NCBI GenBank assembly: GCA_049325535.1
Contig: JBMOKY010000001.1
Coordinates: 1,074,118-1,138,117, forward strand
Source: Patescibacteria group bacterium
Lineage (GTDB): Bacteria > Patescibacteriota > Patescibacteriia > UBA10025 > JAHIVO01
Length of the DNA: 64,000 bases
Direction of reading: 5' to 3'
Positions 1,022 through 20,954 of the stretch are shown here, piece by piece (position 1 is the stretch's first letter; each line of letters opens with the position of its first letter). The notes under the pieces are model-generated. The model was not told the DNA's origin and ran no database searches. It was given only the letters and a program-made list of their open reading frames with translations. The translations under genes and the position numbers were made by a program.

Positions 1022-4099
<3,078 letters not shown>

Positions 4100-4177
4100 A
4101 TGTGAGCATGGGCAACTATGCGCGTGTTATGCCGATCAATTTTTGATCGCAAGAGGCGTAGGGAATAATATATTTGT

Positions 4178-4300
4178 TTCCTGGCCTCTGGTGATCCAAG
4201 CCCCAGGGCCACACCTGATCCCATCCCGAACTCAGTAGTTAAGCCTGGGAGCGCCGATGATACTACGGGGCAAACCGTGGGGAAAGTAGGCCGTTGCCAG
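4178..4300 (+). rRNA. rrf: 5S ribosomal RNA
   Basis: The sequence cctggcctctggtgatcc...cccatcccgaactcagtagttaagcctgggagcgccgatgatactacgggg...ccgttgccag shows helix I 5'/3' complementarity, is about 123 nt long, and sits about 80 nt after the 23S. Confidence 0.85.
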
Positions 4301-4310
4301 TTTATCAAAG

Positions 4311-5610: not shown

Positions 5611-6510
5611 ATGAGCAAATACCACCTCATCGGAGTGGACGTTGGCGGAACTCATCTGAAAGTGGGCATTCGGGAACCAGGGACGGATACGCTTGTTCGT
5701 TTCAAACGAACGGCGTCGTTATGTGGTGCACCTGCCGAAGAAGTCTGGTCAAATGTCTTCAATGAAATCGCGTCAGTCAATGGCGTGCTCCCGCACAATG
5801 CGGTAATCGGGCTTTCCATGCCAGGAGAACTCGACTCACTGCGTGGCGTCATCACCTCTCGTCGGCTTGGGCTGACCAATTTCTCATATGTTGAGCTTTT
5901 TGCCCAACGAGGGTTGCGTCCAGTCGGCATCAATGACGCTCAGGCAAGCGCCATCGGCGAGCTGCACTTCGGTGCAGGGCGGCATTACCAGGATATGGTT
6001 ATCCTAACACTCGGTACCAACATCGGTGGTGCAATAATCTACAACGGTAGGCTCATGACATCAAGTTCGGGCTATACGGTCGGGGTTGTTGCCCATGTGA
6101 CGGTGGACCCTCACGGTCCGGTCTGTCGCTGCGGCCGCCGCGGCTGCTGGGAAACCAAGTGTTCAAAGGCTACCATCCTGACCAGAGCTCGCCAGCTCGG
6201 TATTGACTGCCAGGAAGTCGAGGAGCTCGCCCAGCTGATCGAAACGGATGAGCGGGCACAGACGGTCTTCCGGGAACTCGGAGAGAATATCGCCCAGGGC
6301 ATTCTGGTATTCCTGGACATGCTGGCACCGCAGGCCATCGTCCTCAGCGGTGGCATTTCAAAGGTCGGATCCGTCCTGACGGATCGAATCAATGAAATCG
6401 TCCAGCCCCATGTCCGAGAAGGGCGGCAGCTCCAAATCATGTCTTCCCCGTTGGGTGACATGGCCGGTGTGCTCGGCGCCACCTACCTCGCCGAACACCA
6501 TTCTGCGTAA
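5611..6510 (+). CDS. ROK-family sugar kinase (glucokinase-like)
   Basis: The IGVDVGGTHLKVG ATP-binding motif and the CRCGRRGCWE ROK zinc motif are present. The start is taken as MSKYHL; the ORF extends upstream to 5545. Confidence 0.8.
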   Translation: MSKYHLIGVDVGGTHLKVGIREPGTDTLVRFKRTASLCGAPAEEVWSNVFNEIASVNGVLPHNAVIGLSMPGELDSLRGVITSRRLGLTNFSYVELFAQRGLRPVGINDAQASAIGELHFGAGRHYQDMVILTLGTNIGGAIIYNGRLMTSSSGYTVGVVAHVTVDPHGPVCRCGRRGCWETKCSKATILTRARQLGIDCQEVEELAQLIETDERAQTVFRELGENIAQGILVFLDMLAPQAIVLSGGISKVGSVLTDRINEIVQPHVREGRQLQIMSSPLGDMAGVLGATYLAEHHSA

Positions 6511-13691: not shown

Positions 13692-13778
13692 GGAGGAGTG
13701 GCCGAGTGGTTGAAGGCGCAGCTCTCGAAAAGCTGTATACCCGCAAGGGTATCGTGAGTTCGAATCTCACCTCCTCCG
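13692..13778 (+). tRNA. tRNA-Ser (anticodon CGA)
   Basis: GGAGGAG acceptor stem, 3-bp D-stem, anticodon loop CTCGAAA (CGA), an 18-nt variable arm, GTTCGAAT T-loop and discriminator G. CCA is not encoded. Confidence 0.85.
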
Positions 13779-14012: not shown

Positions 14013-14489
14013 ATGACAAACAATCGACGCGCGAACAATTACTGGACGCCAGCTGATCATTCAGTCGTCAGTGCGGCCCAATCATTCTCCGAGCTGCTCC
14101 CGACCGCCCTAACGATCATCAGGCGCATGCCTCAACCGGTAGCGATGGTGTCTGGCCCGATGTCCACGGGCGGTGCCGGGTCACTGGAAAAAAACGTGTC
14201 CCGTTTTGCCGCCGCCATCCATAATCTGAATGAGGCTGGGATCACCACCTTTGATCAGTTGCCATTCCAAAAAAGCATGATCCGTCTGCTTCAGCAACAC
14301 CACCATGCAACATCCTATTACATGCCGCTGCTGGAGGATTTCTACCTGCCCGTGTTCCAATCAGGCCTGATCGCTCGGGTGTATTTCCTTCCGGACTGGC
14401 ATACGTCATTCGGCGCTCGGTGGGAGCATGACCAATGCGAAAAACTGGGCATCCCGCAAATCCCGTTCCCGGACGCGCTACTCCCCTAA
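14013..14489 (+). CDS. DUF4406-like (nucleoside 2-deoxyribosyltransferase-like fold) hypothetical protein
   Basis: VSGPMSTGG and YFLPDWHTSFGARWEHDQCEKLGIPQI resemble the DUF4406 ...GPM/ITG... and ...LPGWEKSRGARIEHELAKALG... motifs. Confidence 0.5.
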   Translation: MTNNRRANNYWTPADHSVVSAAQSFSELLPTALTIIRRMPQPVAMVSGPMSTGGAGSLEKNVSRFAAAIHNLNEAGITTFDQLPFQKSMIRLLQQHHHATSYYMPLLEDFYLPVFQSGLIARVYFLPDWHTSFGARWEHDQCEKLGIPQIPFPDALLP

Positions 14490-14511: not shown

Positions 14512-15405
14512 ATGAAGACGGAACTCATCATCGGCGTTATCGGTATCATACTGATCGGATTGATCGCCGGCAGCGCCTGGAATGATTATGATGCGCCAGA
14601 ACCGATCAACACCAGTAACGGCGCACTGACCAATGAACAAATAAATGCCCAGCTCCAAGCAGCAGCCGACGCCGGCAGCGCCACGCTCGATATGGAGCTC
14701 ATCTCCCAACATGCCAGCATTGATTCCTGTTGGCTACTTATTGATGGCAAAGTGTATGATGTGACGAGCTATCTCCGGCTTCATCCCGGCGGCCAGCCTA
14801 TTGTGCTTCCGTTCTGCGGTGCGGATGCTACCAGCGCATTTGGCACAAAAGCCGGACAAGGCAGCCACTCATCATTTGCCACAGAGCAGCTGGATACTTT
14901 TTATATTGGCGACTTCAACATGATACTCACCGTGCCAGCTGATGAACTGTCGGCAAACATAAACGCTCCTACCGCCGATCCGGAGACGATGCCCGTGCCC
15001 GCCGCAGTCAATCCGACTCCAGTGACACTCACCCTAAACGCCACTACCGTAGCGCAGCATAATACCGTTGATGACTGCTGGCTGATCATTTCAAACGCGG
15101 TATATGAGGTCACTGCGTACCTCTCCCGACACCCTGGTGGCCGGGCTATTATTGTTCCATACTGCGGAATGGATGCCACCAATGCATTTGGCACCCAAGC
15201 GGGCAAAGGCAGTCATTCATCGTTTGCGGTCAGCGAGCTCGCCTCACTCAAAATCGGTACGCTCGGCGGTACCACCACCGTTGACAGTATCCAGCAAGTA
15301 CAGCAAAATATTAATTCTTCCCCAGCACAACCGACGGGCGAAACCGATGACCAAAACGAAGAAGATGATGAGGAAGATGAAAAGGAGGAATCCGATGATG
15401 ACTAA
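14512..15405 (+). CDS. Membrane-anchored/secreted protein with two tandem cytochrome b5-like heme-binding domains and an acidic C-terminal tail
   Basis: An N-terminal TM helix is present. Two repeats each carry the b5 signature (CWLLIDGKVYDVTSYLRLHPGG...GADATSAFG...GSHSSFA and CWLIISNAVYEVTAYLSRHPGG...GMDATNAFG...GSHSSFA). The C-terminus is DDQNEEDDEEDEKEESDDD. Confidence 0.75.
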   Translation: MKTELIIGVIGIILIGLIAGSAWNDYDAPEPINTSNGALTNEQINAQLQAAADAGSATLDMELISQHASIDSCWLLIDGKVYDVTSYLRLHPGGQPIVLPFCGADATSAFGTKAGQGSHSSFATEQLDTFYIGDFNMILTVPADELSANINAPTADPETMPVPAAVNPTPVTLTLNATTVAQHNTVDDCWLIISNAVYEVTAYLSRHPGGRAIIVPYCGMDATNAFGTQAGKGSHSSFAVSELASLKIGTLGGTTTVDSIQQVQQNINSSPAQPTGETDDQNEEDDEEDEKEESDDD

Positions 15406-15697
15406 CACCTACCTCATCAGTAAAAAAATACACCGCCTGCTGGTACTGATCATTTTGACCATTGGATTACTCATGGCCGTCACCGGCCTCATGCTCAAAT
15501 ACCCGTCGTTCGCCATGGAGTATTTACCATTCTTGAACCTGGGAAAGATTCGCTATCTCCATAATTCGCTCAGCCTGTATTTTTCTATCGTCCTCGTGCT
15601 GATGATCATAACTGGTATCTGGATGTATATATACCCGAGCATCAAAAAATTCAGGTCCAAATCGTCCACGCCACCCGATGACCAGACTAACGGATAA
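15397..15697 (+). CDS. Small 2-TM membrane protein (hypothetical); start overlaps the b5 gene stop
   Basis: MMTNTYLISKKIHRLLVLIILTIGLLMAVTGL... The ATG at 15397 overlaps the upstream stop (15403-15405), suggesting translational coupling. Confidence 0.5.
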
Positions 15698-16244
15698 ACC
15701 CAGCCACCCGGCGAGCAGGGCAACTTTTGCCGCGGGGTGTTTTTGGTGTACCGAGGCTGTATACACCCGGCTGCGGGGTGTTTCCAGCGTGATCCCCGGC
15801 TATGCCAATGGCTCATCCGAATTCGCTACCTATGCGGATGTACAGGCCGGATCCGGGCACGCCGAAGCGGTGCAGATTACCTATGACCCAGCGGTAATCA
15901 GCTACGATCAGTTGCTGACTGTGTTTTTCGGCACTCACGACCCGACCACCCCTGACCGTCAGGGACACGATATCGGCCCCCAATACCGCTCGGCGATCTT
16001 TACCCATGACGAGGAGCAGCGTGAAGTGGCCGAACGCGTAAAAAAACAGCTGACGCATGACCAGATTTTCTCCGCGCCCATTATCACCTTGATTGAGCCG
16101 CTGAGAAATTTTACTCCCGCGGAACGATCCCACAAAAACTACTACGCGCTCAACCGGCAGGAACCCTATTGTCAGCTGGTCATCGATCCGAAAATTGCCA
16201 AACTCCGCAGTACCTACGCAGCACTACTCAAACCCGATATGTAA
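15678..16244 (+). CDS. msrA: Peptide methionine sulfoxide reductase MsrA
   Basis: The GCFWC active-site motif is present, and the protein is full length with collinearity to MsrA. Confidence 0.85.
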   Translation: MTRLTDKPSHPASRATFAAGCFWCTEAVYTRLRGVSSVIPGYANGSSEFATYADVQAGSGHAEAVQITYDPAVISYDQLLTVFFGTHDPTTPDRQGHDIGPQYRSAIFTHDEEQREVAERVKKQLTHDQIFSAPIITLIEPLRNFTPAERSHKNYYALNRQEPYCQLVIDPKIAKLRSTYAALLKPDM

Positions 16245-16336: not shown

Positions 16337-17629
16337 ATGGACACAAAAAAATTCCTCTTTATCTCGGATACCGCGCTTATTTCCGATATAGCCTGGCAGG
16401 TCGTAAAAGAAGGGCACGAGGTCAAATACTACATCAGCGAAGAGGACGACCGGGACAGCGCTGACGGTTTCGTGCCAAAGGTGGCAAACTGGAAAGAACA
16501 TGTCGATTGGGCCGATGTCATCATATTTGATGATGTGATGGGGTACGGTGATGACGCCCAAAAACTGCGGAACCAGGGAAAGCGCGTCATCGGCGGCACA
16601 CCCTACACCGATCGCCTGGAGGACGACCGGACATTTGGCCAGGAAGAGCTGAAACGGCATGATGTCAATATCATCCCCTACCAGGAATTCACCGATTTTG
16701 GATTGGCCATCGAATACGTGAAAGAGCACCCCGATGAATACGTCGTTAAACCCTCGGGAGAAGCCCAAAATATCAAACGACTGCTGTTTGTCGGCATGGA
16801 AAAGGACGGCGCCGATGTCATCCGCATTTTGGAGGCCTACCGCCGGGTGTGGGCAAATAAAATCAAAGTATTCCAGCTGCAGCGGAGAATGAACGGGGTG
16901 GAAGTAGCGGTGGGCGCATTTTTCAACGGCCAACAATTCATTACTCCGATCAATATCAATTTCGAACATAAAAAATTGTTCCCCGGCAATATCGGCCCAG
17001 CCACCGGTGAAATGGGTACTAGCATGTTCTGGTCGGAGCCAAGCCGGCTATTTAACCAGACGCTAAAGAAAATGGAGCCGACCTTCGCCCGGGAACGGTA
17101 TGTCGGATACGTCGACCTGAATTGTATCGTTAATAGCAACGGCATCTACCCCCTCGAGTTCACCGCCCGCTTCGGCTACCCGACCATCAGCATCCAGCAG
17201 GAAAGTATGATCACGCCGATCGGAGAATTCCTCTATGCCCTCGCCGACGGACAGGATCCGAAGCTAAAAATCAAAAAAGGGTTCCATGTCGGCGTCCGGG
17301 TGGTCGTCCCTCCCTACCCCTACCGCGACAAGCGAACATTTGACGCCAATTCAAAAGGTGCGGTCGTCGTATTCAAAGGCAAAAATACCGATGGGGTGCA
17401 CATCGAAGATATCAAAATGGTGAACGGTGAATGGATCGTCACCGGCTCCACCGGTGTGGCATTGATCGTCGTCGGATCTGGGCCAACTATGCGCCAGGCC
17501 AAAGACCAGGCCTACAACCGCATCAAAAACATCCTCATCCCCAATATGTACTATCGCATGGATATCAGTGACCGCTGGAACGACGATTCGGATAAACTGC
17601 ACTCCTGGGGATATCTGCGGGAAATCTAG
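16337..17629 (+). CDS. ATP-grasp enzyme, PurD-like (phosphoribosylamine-glycine ligase family)
   Basis: EYVVKPSGEAQN and LEFTARFGYP resemble the PurD VVKADGLAAGKG and EFNCRFGDPE motifs. The start is at MDTKKFLFI. Assignment to PurD specifically is not certain. Confidence 0.6.
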   Translation: MDTKKFLFISDTALISDIAWQVVKEGHEVKYYISEEDDRDSADGFVPKVANWKEHVDWADVIIFDDVMGYGDDAQKLRNQGKRVIGGTPYTDRLEDDRTFGQEELKRHDVNIIPYQEFTDFGLAIEYVKEHPDEYVVKPSGEAQNIKRLLFVGMEKDGADVIRILEAYRRVWANKIKVFQLQRRMNGVEVAVGAFFNGQQFITPININFEHKKLFPGNIGPATGEMGTSMFWSEPSRLFNQTLKKMEPTFARERYVGYVDLNCIVNSNGIYPLEFTARFGYPTISIQQESMITPIGEFLYALADGQDPKLKIKKGFHVGVRVVVPPYPYRDKRTFDANSKGAVVVFKGKNTDGVHIEDIKMVNGEWIVTGSTGVALIVVGSGPTMRQAKDQAYNRIKNILIPNMYYRMDISDRWNDDSDKLHSWGYLREI

Positions 17630-18726
17630 TCTTTGAATTTAAACATCCTCCAGGCGATCAAAAACGACACGACCACCCAGGCGGCCATCAGACCCAGCTG
17701 GCTGCCGATGGCGCTCACGCTCTCGGCATCGATGGATACTTTTCGGAGTGCCTCAATCATCGGGGTCAACGGTAAATAGGCCACAATCCGCGCCACGATA
17801 CCGGGCAGGGCGTCAGTCGAAAAGAAAACTCCGGAAAAAAACATCATCGGCATCGTCACCACTTGCGACATGGCTTCAGCTGTTTTGGTATTTTTCGAGT
17901 ACCCCGCCACGGCAAATCCGAGATTGAGAAATATGATACTGCCAAAAATCGCCAAGCCATAGATAAGCAGGTAGCTCCCCTGCACCTGCACCTGGAAAGC
18001 GATGCGCGCCAGGAGAATAATCAGACTCACCTGAGCGATATTGACCACCAAATAGCTCGCCACCTCGGCCATCAGGAATGTACGCACCTTGAGCGGTGTC
18101 GCGGAGAGTCGTTTCAATAATTTCTGCTCCCGATACCGGGATATACCGGTGGAAATGCCGATGACCGCCGATGTCATGATGGCCATACCCAGGATGCCGG
18201 GCATAATCAGGTCGATATAACGGACGTTTTTCGCCTGGACACTCTCTGCGGTATAGGAAAAAATTTGCGGGGTCTGCGCGACTTGCATGTTCATTTTATC
18301 GACGAATGTGCTGACTATACTGACGCCCACCTGATTTGCCAGGATATTCGCCTCATCATAGTACACCTGCACCGGTTCCGGCAAAGCTGACGGTTGACCC
18401 GCTCCCGCTTCCATTGATTGAGTAAAACCGGGGGGAATCACCAGGACAAAATCGACATCCCCGTCTTTCAATGACTGACGCGCTTCATCGACGGTGCCGG
18501 CAAAATCCTGACGGTCCAATACGTCAATCTGCGAAAATCCTTCGAGGAATTGAGCAGATAAATCCGAATTCGCCTGATCAACCACTGCGTACTTGGCGCT
18601 GCCCATATTTTCAAAATCAAACAGGCCAAAAATGATGATAAACATCAGGGGGAACAGCAACGACCAAAAAATCGCTTGCTTGTCCCGCACGGTCATTTTT
18701 ATGTTTGCCCACAGAAGTTTCCACAT
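17626..18726 (-). CDS. ABC-2 type transporter permease
   Basis: Six-TM ABC-2 architecture; translationally adjacent to an ABC ATPase. Confidence 0.75.
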   Translation of the reverse strand: MWKLLWANIKMTVRDKQAIFWSLLFPLMFIIIFGLFDFENMGSAKYAVVDQANSDLSAQFLEGFSQIDVLDRQDFAGTVDEARQSLKDGDVDFVLVIPPGFTQSMEAGAGQPSALPEPVQVYYDEANILANQVGVSIVSTFVDKMNMQVAQTPQIFSYTAESVQAKNVRYIDLIMPGILGMAIMTSAVIGISTGISRYREQKLLKRLSATPLKVRTFLMAEVASYLVVNIAQVSLIILLARIAFQVQVQGSYLLIYGLAIFGSIIFLNLGFAVAGYSKNTKTAEAMSQVVTMPMMFFSGVFFSTDALPGIVARIVAYLPLTPMIEALRKVSIDAESVSAIGSQLGLMAAWVVVSFLIAWRMFKFKD

Positions 18727-18730
18727 ACCG

Positions 18731-19672
18731 TTACGAATGTTCTAATTTCTTTCCGGTTAATTCGAGAAATGCGTCCTCGAGGTCGGCTGATTTGAGCGTC
18801 AAATCGCCCATGAATACACGCTGTTGTTCAGCCCATTTATACAGGTTCGGTAGTACTTCGTTGCCCTTGGTCACCCGGACAGTGTACACATGATCGATTT
18901 TTTCCACGTCGATTACCCCGGGCACCGACCGGAGCGTCGCCAGGTCAAATTGTTCCTGTGCGCCAAATCGTATCTTTGACGACGAGTGTAATCGGGCGAT
19001 CAGCCGTTCCGGCGTATCCAGCGCGGCGATCACCCCGCCCTCCATGATTCCCACGCGATGGCAGAGATACTGCGCTTCCTCCATATAGTGCGTCGTCAAT
19101 ACGATGGTCTTTCCCTGTTTATTCACGCTCTCGATGAAATTCCACATGAGTCGCCGGGCATAGGGATCGAGCCCGGTGGTCGGCTCATCGAGAAAAACGA
19201 CCTCGGGGTCATTGACCAGCGCTGCGCATATGGAAAACCGCTGCTGCTGGCCGCCCGACAGCTGTTTGACGAGCGCTTTTTTCTTGTCCCGCAAATCGAC
19301 GATATCGAGCAGTGCGTCGGTGTCGACCTGCTGACCATAAAAACTTCCAAATAATTCCAGGATCTCCCCGAGCTGCAGATATTCATAATAGGCTGACGAC
19401 TGCAGCTGAATACCGATGATACGCTTGACCGCATCTTTCTGATGACGCGTATCCATACCTTTGATCATGGCCATTCCTGAGGTCGGCTCCTGCAGGCCCT
19501 CGATGATTTCCAGGGTAGTCGTTTTACCGGCACCATTGGGGCCAAGCAGCCCAAAAATTTCCCCCTCCGGCACGCTAAAGGAGAGGTGATTAACCGCGGT
19601 GAGATTGCCTTTTTTGTCCGGCGAAACAAATGTTTTGACGAGGTCACGGACCTCAATAATCGATGATGCCAT
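18731..19672 (-). CDS. ABC transporter ATP-binding protein
   Basis: Walker A GLLGPNGAGKTT, the signature LSGGQQQR and Walker B VVFLDEPTTGLD are present. The start is at MASSIIEV. Confidence 0.85.
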   Translation of the reverse strand: MASSIIEVRDLVKTFVSPDKKGNLTAVNHLSFSVPEGEIFGLLGPNGAGKTTTLEIIEGLQEPTSGMAMIKGMDTRHQKDAVKRIIGIQLQSSAYYEYLQLGEILELFGSFYGQQVDTDALLDIVDLRDKKKALVKQLSGGQQQRFSICAALVNDPEVVFLDEPTTGLDPYARRLMWNFIESVNKQGKTIVLTTHYMEEAQYLCHRVGIMEGGVIAALDTPERLIARLHSSSKIRFGAQEQFDLATLRSVPGVIDVEKIDHVYTVRVTKGNEVLPNLYKWAEQQRVFMGDLTLKSADLEDAFLELTGKKLEHS

Positions 19673-19755
19673 AACGTATAGTGACCTGCAGTATAGCATG
19701 CTCCAATATGCCCGTAAATGCAGAGGCATACTATTTCTGCTATACTGGGCATACT

Positions 19756-20253
19756 ATGCCCCTACTGCGCATCCCCTTTTTCCCTCAAAAAACCGATTAT
19801 ACCTGCGGCCCGGCGGCGATGCGGATGGTATTCGGATATTTCAAAAAAAGCGCTTCCGAAAAAAATCTAGCGCGACGGATGCGAACCAATCCGCGGCACG
19901 GCACCACCCATCAGGCCATGATCCGCGCCGCGCAGCAAGCCGGGTTCTATGTCTATGTCAATGAAATGGCAACGCTGGAAGAGCTTATATTCCTATTGTC
20001 CTGGCGCTGCCCGGTCATCGTCAACTATACTGAGCCGTCGGCAAATGAAGGACATTTCGCCGTCGTCACCGGCGTCACCAAAAAGAATGTCATCCTACAC
20101 GATCCCTGGAATGGAAAACGGTTTACCCTCAGCCGTCGCTCGTTTCTCGCCCGATGGCATGACCAATTGCCAAAAACCTACTCAAAAAACTGGCTGATGG
20201 CCATCAGCCGCAAAGATTTCCAGGTCGGCAAGCAATACCCACCAAAGAAATAA
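19756..20253 (+). CDS. Peptidase C39-like (papain-fold) domain protein, standalone
   Basis: QKTDYTCGPAAMRMV places the catalytic Cys in C39 context. There is a downstream His in a ...HFAVVTGV... region. No transporter is fused. Confidence 0.65.
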   Translation: MPLLRIPFFPQKTDYTCGPAAMRMVFGYFKKSASEKNLARRMRTNPRHGTTHQAMIRAAQQAGFYVYVNEMATLEELIFLLSWRCPVIVNYTEPSANEGHFAVVTGVTKKNVILHDPWNGKRFTLSRRSFLARWHDQLPKTYSKNWLMAISRKDFQVGKQYPPKK

Positions 20254-20260
20254 ACAACAA

Positions 20261-20602
20261 ATGTTTTTAAATGCACCTGTCAACCCCACACCCGTAAAGC
20301 GCCGCCTCTACCTCGCAGTCAGCGTATTGCTTGGGCTGCTGCTCTCGGTACTGCTGCATGTGGTAATCGAGCAACTCTTTCTCAGCTGGACAACGGATGC
20401 CGGCCACGCCGTCACCTGGTATGGCGGCTGTGCACTGCACCCTGCGCTGCAAATAGGATTGCTCGTGCTGGGCGCCCTCGGTGGCTACGGTCTCGGACGC
20501 ATGTGGTGGCGCATGGTATATATCGATCGCCGCTGGGCAAAAGGCATTATCAAAAAATATTCCCAATCCAATGAGCCAACCGCATCCACCCATCAACAAT
20601 AA
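20261..20602 (+). CDS. Small 2-TM membrane protein (hypothetical)
   Basis: Two hydrophobic helices are present. It lies between the C39 peptidase and msrB and overlaps the msrB start by about 30 nt. Confidence 0.4.
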
Positions 20603-20954
20603 TCTCACGCCCGAGCAATACACCATTTGCTTCCTGAAGGGTACCGAACCGCCGGGGTCAGGCAAATGGTTACATAACGACGCATCTGGTATGTACATCT
20701 GCGTTAATTGCGGCCAAGAATTATTCAGTTCCGAAACAAAATTTGATTCCGGAACCGGTTGGCCATCATTCTGGGATCCAGTGCACCATGCCAATATCAA
20801 AACCGAAACTGATGATTCACTGGGAGTCCGACGCACCGAGGTGCTCTGTAGCACATGCGGCGCGCATCTCGGGCATGTGTTCCCCGACGGGCCGGCACCA
20901 ACCGGCCAACGGTACTGCATCAATTCGTTGGCACTCAATTTCACAAAAAAATAG
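20571..20954 (+). CDS. msrB: Peptide methionine sulfoxide reductase MsrB (SelR)
   Basis: [40 protein letters not shown] and [12 protein letters not shown] carry the two CxxC zinc motifs and the catalytic Cys region. Confidence 0.85.

Follow-up and report, generated by a model that had tools for sequence, protein, structure and literature searches.

Fermentation without electron-transport chains is the usual picture of Patescibacteria, whose iron acquisition and oxygen handling are poorly understood. What a heme protein predicted to sit on the surface of such a cell may do is the question raised by one locus of the window (the whole stretch of DNA analysed, 64,000 nucleotides or 64 kb from a Patescibacteria group bacterium), in which a gene for a tandem cytochrome b5 protein is followed by a gene for a small membrane protein of two transmembrane helices (the 2-TM protein) and by msrA. 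The original prediction had proposed that the b5 hemes and the 2-TM protein supply electrons to MsrA by a route independent of DsbD/CcdA. Our analysis pointed elsewhere: the b5 and 2-TM proteins would together form a transmembrane b-heme conduit for the reduction of extracellular Fe(III) or another metal, a reading that we regard as evenly poised between right and wrong. The locus is laid out as follows.

14512..15405, + strand: tandem cytochrome b5 gene (open reading frame; Pfam Cyt-b5 twice), 297 aa, product predicted to be membrane-anchored and surface-exposed
15381..15389, + strand: Shine-Dalgarno sequence AAAGGAGGA of the 2-TM gene, read from the sequence, within the b5 coding region
15395..15697, + strand: 2-TM gene (PepSY_TM match), 100 aa, product predicted to be a half-size di-heme cytochrome b
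15678..16244, + strand: msrA (Pfam PMSR, TIGR00401), cytoplasmic peptide-methionine (S)-S-oxide reductase with the motif GCFWC, a co-transcribed neighbour

It is clear from these coordinates that the three genes overlap. The 2-TM gene starts at ATG 15395 (the second ATG, at 15398, is the start in public gene calls), and with the b5 stop codon at 15403-15405 it overlaps the b5 gene by 11 nt. The Shine-Dalgarno sequence ahead of this start is strong, and the b5 end itself, GAT GAT GAC TAA, has ATG ATG readable in the +1 frame. The msrA start, ATG 15678, lies 20 nt ahead of the 2-TM stop (15695-15697), and from a reading of the sequence no in-frame start further upstream is possible. The overlapping trio that had been claimed was thus found again, except that the 2-TM start is at 15395 and not at 15397, and all three genes are probably co-translated. 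The same gene order was present in the near-identical contigs. A scan for promoters and terminators around the operon returned sites no more numerous than in shuffled sequence.

The junction of the first two genes was found to be dual coding, in the window (15381-15405) as in L002, L014, L033, L102, L106, L119 and L121: the ATG of the 2-TM gene is embedded in the terminal Asp codons of b5 (GAT GAx), and its Shine-Dalgarno sequence in the Glu/Gly codons before them. Purine-rich motifs resembling AAAGGAGGA were seen upstream of the 2-TM start in other lineages too. The conserved '...EDD' C-terminus of b5 may in part be constrained by the initiation signals of the 2-TM gene.

The b5 protein was analysed by family models, structure prediction and alignment of orthologues. 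Pfam Cyt-b5 (PF00173) matched it in two stretches (E 2.5e-36, 123.9 bits against a cut-off of 23.7), with HPGG at residues 91-94 and 207-210 and GSHSS at residues 117-121 and 233-237. Its parts are listed below; pLDDT is the predicted local distance difference test of AlphaFold2 (AF2).

14518..14583, + strand: N-terminal signal-anchor or possible signal peptide, residues 3-24, a hydrophobic helix in the AF2 model
14683..14919, + strand: b5 domain 1, residues ~58-136 (Pfam stretch 63-135), axial His91/His119, Cys73/Cys102
15031..15264, + strand: b5 domain 2, residues ~174-251 (second Pfam stretch; pLDDT 84-96), axial His207/His235, Cys189/Cys218
15337..15402, + strand: disordered poly-acidic C-terminal tail (pLDDT <50), whose last codons carry the Shine-Dalgarno sequence and start of the 2-TM gene

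In the AF2 model the two b5 domains were well formed (pLDDT 80-96), and the top Foldseek matches were all b5 proteins. The best structural match was cytochrome b558 (PDB 1CXY; root-mean-square deviation 1.0 Å, template-modelling score 0.89, 41% identity), which was also the best sequence match among solved structures (E 1.8e-15), with Cys at both aligned Cys positions. All four axial His (H91, H119, H207 and H235) were invariant in 21 orthologues of 32-62% identity, and so was one Cys pair per domain (C73/C102 and C189/C218). To judge from these residues, the b5 domains are genuine bis-His heme domains. The two complete domains, the N-terminal anchor and the poly-acidic C-terminus, all put forward earlier, were borne out by Pfam, AF2 and the alignment, and the conservation of the axial His in orthologues, named there as a check, held. 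Between the domains lies a disordered linker rich in Asn, Thr and Pro, and Asp and Glu make up 15 of the 20 C-terminal residues, an acidic tail that is conserved in the orthologues. This tail may, as a speculation, bind cations or dock on the basic outer loop of the 2-TM protein, of which K35 and R53 are invariant among close relatives. Members of the b5 family carry 2-5 b5 repeats, and almost all come from Patescibacteria or DPANN archaea. NCBIfam held no model for the b5 protein and none for the 2-TM protein.

The location of the b5 domains is decisive for any function. A Lys stands ahead of the N-terminal hydrophobic stretch and acidic residues after it, and the motif GSA|W could be a signal cleavage site. 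Lipoprotein signal peptides were present in two b5 homologues (L044 and L038). Because of this signal-anchor with its flanking charges, the lipoprotein signals of the homologues, the invariant Cys pairs and the low-complexity linkers, the b5 domains are placed outside the cytoplasm, in agreement with what had been predicted. Cytochrome b558, which shares the Cys pair, is a periplasmic, exported protein.

The partner of the b5 protein turned out to be informative in its own right. The 2-TM protein of the window matched Pfam PepSY_TM (PF03929) marginally (29.3 bits, cut-off 28.8), and weaker matches were obtained with DUF4405 (23.2 bits, below the cut-off of 26.7), eukaryotic b561 and prokaryotic b561 (Ni_hydr_CYTB); each of these four families consists of membrane proteins with heme b. 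By an exhaustive profile search, a family of 197 clusters was collected, nearly all of them 70-125 aa long and stand-alone. Among 48 diverse members, H13, G31, H56 and G74 were the sole invariant residues, and at E<=0.01 PepSY_TM was matched by 34 of the 48, DUF4405 by 29, Cytochrom_B561 by 15 and Ni_hydr_CYTB by 15. Judged by these matches, the 2-TM protein is predicted to be a heme-b protein of the PepSY_TM/DUF4405/b561 group, and the passive role in which it had first been cast does not fit it. Its two helices and 100 aa contrast with the four-transmembrane bundle of FoxB, the siderophore reductase of the PepSY_TM family, and it has no PepSY domain; we did not file it as a FoxB-type protein.

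Transmembrane segments were predicted from hydropathy, charge statistics and AF2, and the AF2 model of the 2-TM protein was a helical hairpin. Across the family, the N-terminal tail carries on average 3.5 Lys+Arg and 0.04 Asp+Glu, the loop between the helices 1.5 and 1.4, and the C-terminal tail 3.8 and 0.8. By the positive-inside rule, these charges indicate that both termini lie in the cytoplasm, which would put H13 (KKIHR) on the cytoplasmic side of the membrane and H56 (RYLHN) on the outer side. The two helices (TM1 and TM2) form an in-register internal repeat, [KR]-x-[IL]-H-x13-M-x2-T-G (hhalign probability 94%). Each invariant Gly is 18 residues past a His, which brings it to the opposite membrane face, and it would be placed beside the point where the His of the other helix would hold a heme. 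When the family profile was compared with the PDB, HyaC (E 0.013) and FdnI (E 0.072) were matched weakly over their TM1-TM2; in these, H56 aligned opposite the His of the 'RLIH'/'RILH' motifs, which we take to be a heme ligand.

The simplest reading of such a protein would be a homodimer, giving a four-helix, two-heme wire, and the single His per helix and the in-register repeat of TM1 and TM2 fit a dimer. No fusion of b5 to the 2-TM protein was found among the 150 best matches of the family. One long match, P0269, was rejected as such a fusion, since it carries an unrelated membrane domain. A 105-aa gene just upstream of msrA in L001 was likewise considered as a second 2-TM copy and rejected (14% identity, without the His motif).

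Taken together, the two proteins suggest the following pathway. The 2-TM protein would homodimerise into a four-helix bundle with two hemes, one near each membrane face, as in FoxB, FezC or the cytochromes b FdnI and HyaC, and a cytoplasmic reductase would load the inner heme (H13/H13'). Electrons would then pass to the outer heme (H56/H56') and on to the two bis-His b5 domains, which the N-terminal anchor and flexible linkers would hold at the cell surface. The final acceptor would most probably be Fe(III) or a different metal outside the cell, whose reduction would serve uptake, as the gene context of relatives suggests. Several lines favour a metal as the acceptor: known PepSY_TM members are siderophore or metal reductases, relatives of the two genes occur with ZIP or with FTR1 and Fur, sister b5 genes have partners with ferric-reductase domains, and the plant pair FRO2-IRT1 offers an analogy. 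MsrA would share the transcript, probably induced by the same oxic or oxidative conditions, and would receive no heme electrons; such co-expression would make sense because oxic conditions both precipitate iron and oxidise methionine.

The supply of heme electrons to MsrA, on which the original prediction had rested, was examined through MsrA itself. The protein of the window is a clear member of its family (Pfam PMSR, PF01625, E 8.8e-58, 195 bits; TIGR00401 159.9 bits against a cut-off of 108.1) with the catalytic motif GCFWC, which marks a CXXC-type MsrA recycled by thioredoxin. Neither a signal peptide nor a transmembrane segment was found in MsrA of the window, L004, L015 or L001, where the N-terminus is polar. 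The enzyme of the window is a cytoplasmic one and draws no electrons from surface hemes; as MsrA is cytoplasmic in every locus and the b5 hemes lie outside the membrane, the hemes cannot reach it. One-electron hemes are moreover poor donors to a disulfide, and a conventional thiol route is present in the Candidate Phyla Radiation (CPR): in the CPR bacterium of L020 (9698-12043), a 593-aa DsbD_TM-Redoxin-Thioredoxin_10 fusion stands directly upstream of an exported, membrane-anchored MsrB, 4 kb from a triple-b5 gene. A search for the thioredoxin CxxC motif in the 64-kb window returned none. The probable translational coupling of the three overlapping genes and the recurrence of the trio in L004 and in L015/L099 speak for the heme supply; msrA is, however, missing from 27 of the 30 lineages with a 2-TM gene in which it could be evaluated, and we consider this explanation scarcely credible.

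To gain a wider view of the pair, its neighbourhood was surveyed in 80 genome loci (from the b5 alignment), 30 metagenome loci (from the 2-TM alignment) and the contigs of individual proteins, which gave 34 distinct 2-TM lineages at 85% identity; neighbour counts are simple calls of open reading frames and hidden Markov models on unannotated contigs, and the neighbour-joining tree is rough. In 25 of 33 evaluable lineages the 2-TM gene was immediately preceded by a b5 gene, which had two or more b5 domains in 10 of those 25. Where b5 was present, its stop and the 2-TM start were within ~60 nt of each other, and overlaps of 8 or 11 nt recurred in several divergent lineages. By these counts, it is b5 and the 2-TM gene that are conserved together as a unit.

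Two further neighbours recurred downstream. A ZIP metal transporter gene directly followed the 2-TM gene in 6 of 30 evaluable lineages, mainly in those without b5; b5, 2-TM and ZIP genes stood together in L106 alone. msrA occupied this position in 3 of 30 (the window, L004 and L015/L099), and in L001 it was 4.5 kb away. The synteny of the trio in related genomes, named as a check of the original prediction, was thus recovered in three deep lineages, and its co-occurrence held for the b5/2-TM pair, with msrA joining it in these three lineages only. On the rough tree, the msrA-linked loci branched deeply within the tandem-b5 clade; the linkage is probably ancient, with several losses since. As a separate observation, in L092 (1914-2943), L110 (4989-6022) and similar Roizmanbacteria-type contigs, the 2-TM gene lacked an upstream b5 and abutted or overlapped the ZIP gene, and in L092 a DsbA-like gene came after it.

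Related exported b5 genes were also examined for their partners. Of the 80 genome loci, 32 had a NOX-like gene (Ferric_reduct+FAD_binding_8+NAD_binding_1) beside b5, mostly immediately upstream of it and in Proteobacteria as well; L018, L021, L022 and L025 are examples of this pairing. In L024 the Ferric_reduct transmembrane domain was fused to five b5 domains, and DoxX was fused or adjacent to b5 in L016, L023 and L027. In L032 (5734-6465) and L034 (5824-6609), b5 was fused to an N-terminal three-helix membrane domain, of which the second helix carries HX13H (two His 14 residues apart) and which matched no Pfam family; the same HX13H was found in a stand-alone 73-aa protein of L044. In L057 (3979-9003, Woesebacteria), msrA, msrB, FTR1 and b5 were arranged head to tail, the FTR1 iron permease gene overlapping b5, and a ZIP transporter, a Fur-family regulator and a 218-aa MsrQ-like protein consisting of Ferric_reduct only were encoded nearby.

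Other arrangements were noted in passing. An exported b5 of the b558 type was directly downstream of a NOX-like gene in L050, L065, L068, L071, L074, L075, L078 and L081, in most of them with the b5 match near position 6001 and the end of the NOX-like reading frame just ahead of it; the Proteobacteria with this pairing include Ectothiorhodospiraceae (L050), Thioalkalivibrio (L065), Pseudomonas, Rhodoblastus, Polyangium and Alcanivorax. The NOX-like gene may point to the long-missing partner of cytochrome b558. In L017, L019 and L020 (reading frames ending at ~5830-5960), the gene directly upstream of the tandem b5 encodes a membrane-anchored peptidyl-prolyl isomerase of the cyclophilin type, judged by the motif FHR[IV]V...GGDP. 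PepSY-like C-terminal domains, seen by eye in the distant tandem-b5 proteins of L019, L020, L022 and L025, were dropped because they had no Pfam support.

These partners also bear on the idea that the surface b5 domains collect heme in the manner of hemophores and that the 2-TM protein receives or stores it. Patescibacteria generally lack heme biosynthesis, and the b5 fold binds heme non-covalently; strict bis-His ligation, however, is typical of electron carriers and not of hemophores. Heme-chaperone roles have been speculated for other CPR b5-like proteins (bioRxiv 10.1101/2021.11.17.468889). The 2-TM protein, however, is too small for a transporter, and related b5 genes are accompanied by genes for redox proteins (NOX-like, Ferric_reduct, DoxX) and not for heme importers. 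Heme scavenging at this locus is in our opinion very improbable.

The main rival of metal reduction is a defence against oxidative damage, in which the conduit would feed extracytoplasmic repair or detoxification and be co-regulated with msrA in an oxidative-stress regulon; its target could be an MsrP-like reductase encoded elsewhere, or superoxide could be scavenged at the surface as by the E. coli cytochrome b561 CybB. The old linkage suggested by the rough tree argues for it, msrA being directly downstream in three deep tandem-b5 lineages and 4.5 kb off in a fourth. Among the most recurrent specific neighbours of exported b5 were msrA (6) and msrB (5) in 83 distinct b5 loci (±6 kb), against ~1% by our rough estimate for a gene present once in a genome of 1 Mb, a comparison that the phylogenetic non-independence of the loci weakens; the recurrent msr neighbourhood is more than noise. 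In L006, superoxide dismutase and an MsrQ-like Ferric_reduct protein were encoded 2 kb away.

The strongest case for a link between b5 and repair was an island of L044 (4200-9631, Woesearchaeota), which encodes on one strand a Fur/PerR-like regulator, rubrerythrin, glutaredoxin, desulfoferrodoxin and a b5 lipoprotein, then the 73-aa HX13H protein with two transmembrane helices, an exported MsrP-like Oxidored_molyb lipoprotein, MsrB, MsrA, an FNR-like FAD/NAD reductase and Ogg. This island looks like a split MsrPQ-type system using b5, and MsrPQ itself is a precedent for a heme membrane protein that feeds a periplasmic Msr (PMC12525009). Nevertheless, the small membrane protein of L044 is of another family, with HX13H on one helix and no match to the 2-TM family of the window. 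No MsrP-like or other exported repair enzyme was found in the window or in the loci of its 2-TM family, and msrA is absent from most of the 2-TM lineages, as counted above. Furthermore, the acidic tail would be expected to repel superoxide, and overlaps of unrelated genes are, in our experience, common in compact genomes, with one other case in the window (msrB and a membrane-protein gene). We consider the defence against oxidative damage unlikely.

A further alternative is an outlet for redox balance, through which a fermentative cell with no respiratory chain would shed excess cytoplasmic reducing equivalents onto Fe(III) minerals, humics, O2 or the surface of a host cell, much as Gram-positive bacteria do by flavin-based extracellular electron transfer. 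The architecture does not differ from that of the metal-reducing conduit, membrane hemes and a surface heme chain on flexible linkers with 2-5 b5 repeats in relatives; NOX-like partners that oxidise NAD(P)H accompany related b5 genes; and electron carriers of CPR bacteria may reoxidise NADH or ferredoxin (PMC8080830). Two tethered b5 hemes, however, make a short wire only, the 2-TM type has no partner gene that binds NAD(P)H, and the ZIP and FTR1 contexts speak for an assimilatory, not a dissimilatory, process. Such an outlet is distinctly less than likely, to the point that we would be surprised by it.

Metal reduction for uptake, the reading that we prefer, also has a number of findings to face. 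The ZIP linkage stems from a 2-TM subclade different from that of the window, and within the tandem-b5 clade msrA, and not a metal transporter, is the one further gene that recurs beside the pair. Neither ZIP, FTR1 nor another iron importer was found in the 64-kb window, no gene for a cytoplasmic electron donor is beside the pair, and the window holds no NOX-like or FNR-like reductase. The match to PepSY_TM clears its threshold by a narrow margin, and FoxB itself was not among the PDB entries recovered with the profiles of the 2-TM family. Lastly, Patescibacteria usually lack heme synthesis, which leaves the source of the heme unexplained. All of these weigh against the reading.

The pair was then set beside known systems. 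Cytochrome b558 of Ectothiorhodospira vacuolata (1CXY) resembles the b5 domains of the window in its HPGG and second-His ligands and in its Cys positions; it is a single soluble domain, whereas the window protein has two domains, an anchor, an acidic tail and a 2-TM partner. FoxB is a di-heme siderophore reductase of four transmembrane helices, with hemes at the edges of the bilayer, one His per helix and Arg/Lys on the propionates (bioRxiv 10.1101/2021.01.28.428567). Like FoxB (PDB 7ABW), the 2-TM protein has one conserved His per helix with basic residues beside it (KKIHR, RYLH; R10, K373 and R342 in FoxB), the hemes of its dimer are predicted at both edges of the bilayer, and its relatives occur in an iron-uptake context. 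FoxB, however, is one chain with four helices and two periplasmic PepSY domains, whereas the 2-TM protein would have to dimerise and has its outer domain, b5, in trans. DUF4405 and FezC bind heme b, and FezC was modelled with heme sites formed by homodimerisation (PMC11334425; 2024). They too are small His-bearing membrane heme proteins, and FezC is tied to iron transport in the ferrosome; the DUF4405 protein that was studied, however, has six transmembrane helices and flavinylated partners, whereas the partner of the 2-TM protein is b5 and not a flavoprotein.

The nearest report from the same group of bacteria is that genes for a ferric-reductase-domain protein (pFre) and b5 co-localise in CPR genomes, for which an undefined membrane redox complex was proposed (bioRxiv 10.1101/2021.11.17.468889). 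There, as here, b5 is paired with a heme membrane redox protein within the same phylum-level group. The pFre/NOX-like protein, however, is a 430-aa flavocytochrome, and the 100-aa two-helix protein without a flavin or NAD(P)H domain was not described as a partner in that work. The same study called the pFre-b5 pairing CPR-specific, and our Proteobacteria loci contradict this. In the literature, we found no description of the pairing of b5 with a 100-aa 2-TM protein, of the 2-TM family, its internal repeat or its ZIP linkage, and nothing on Patescibacteria with a ferric reductase or on b558 with a disulfide.

In plants (FRO2 and IRT1) and mammals (Dcytb and DMT1), a di-heme cytochrome b reduces Fe(III) and an importer takes up the Fe(II), IRT1 being a ZIP protein. 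The ZIP genes directly after the 2-TM gene in six lineages and the Cytochrom_B561 matches of the 2-TM family recall these pairs. The resemblance is no more than an analogy: ZIP is absent from the window locus, and the proteins encoded there are much smaller. MsrPQ, in which a heme-b membrane protein passes electrons to an extracytoplasmic Msr, is the closest counterpart of the proposal of a heme supply to MsrA; the 64-kb window has, however, neither MsrP (Oxidored_molyb) nor MsrQ (Ferric_reduct), and the two Msr enzymes encoded in it, MsrA and MsrB, are cytoplasmic and thiol-based.

The module is flanked by genes that lie outside the conserved pair.

14013..14489, + strand: DUF4406-like gene (Pfam DUF4406, 22.8 bits), upstream of b5
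~20571..20954, + strand: msrB (Pfam SelR, E 2.7e-49; gene call in the near-identical contig L089), a separate transcription unit outside the module

The DUF4406-like gene ends 22 nt before the b5 start and possibly shares its transcript; it was found as a neighbour in the closest relative, L001, only and is not conserved with the b5/2-TM pair. A purD-like gene and two convergent ABC-transporter genes on the minus strand (17626-19729) lie between msrA and msrB, for which reason msrB belongs to a different transcription unit, in line with the second operon ~4 kb away that had been predicted. Within 19879-20954, msrB overlaps by ~32 nt the end of a gene for a 113-aa membrane protein (20261-20602), which comes after a C39-peptidase-like gene, and genes for a Cu-oxidase_4 (YfiH-like) protein and for MazG come after it. 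Elsewhere in the window, 1028-4302 holds a 23S rRNA (3068 nt against a model of 2925 positions, ~140 nt extra, possibly an insertion) and then a 5S rRNA; a 16S rRNA was not matched anywhere in the 64 kb, including the 1 kb upstream of the 23S. An 87-nt tRNA (13692-13778), of the long variable-arm type by its length, lies between a methyltransferase gene and the DUF4406-like gene.

If the proposed pathway is right, a conserved two-gene module of ~400 residues could move electrons from the cytoplasm to the surface on b-type hemes alone, and the b5/2-TM pair would be a simple, testable candidate, in a large uncultured group, for the reductive uptake of metals or for redox repair at the surface. 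The 2-TM protein defines an undescribed branch of very small proteins in the PepSY_TM/DUF4405/b561 group and is a possible minimal model of transmembrane electron transfer. A bolder form of this idea, which we hold tentatively and think rather unlikely, is that the 100-aa protein is the smallest self-sufficient transmembrane electron wire described so far: its inverted repeat of His...Thr-Gly, as a homodimer with two hemes, would with the surface b5 chain make a complete cytoplasm-to-surface pathway in non-respiring Patescibacteria, in one operon with msrA since the origin of the window clade, and the same conduit might also serve the repair of oxidised surface proteins besides metal reduction. 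More broadly, the survey showed exported b5 proteins, the relatives of b558 included, to be generally partnered with membrane heme reductases, in Proteobacteria as in CPR bacteria.

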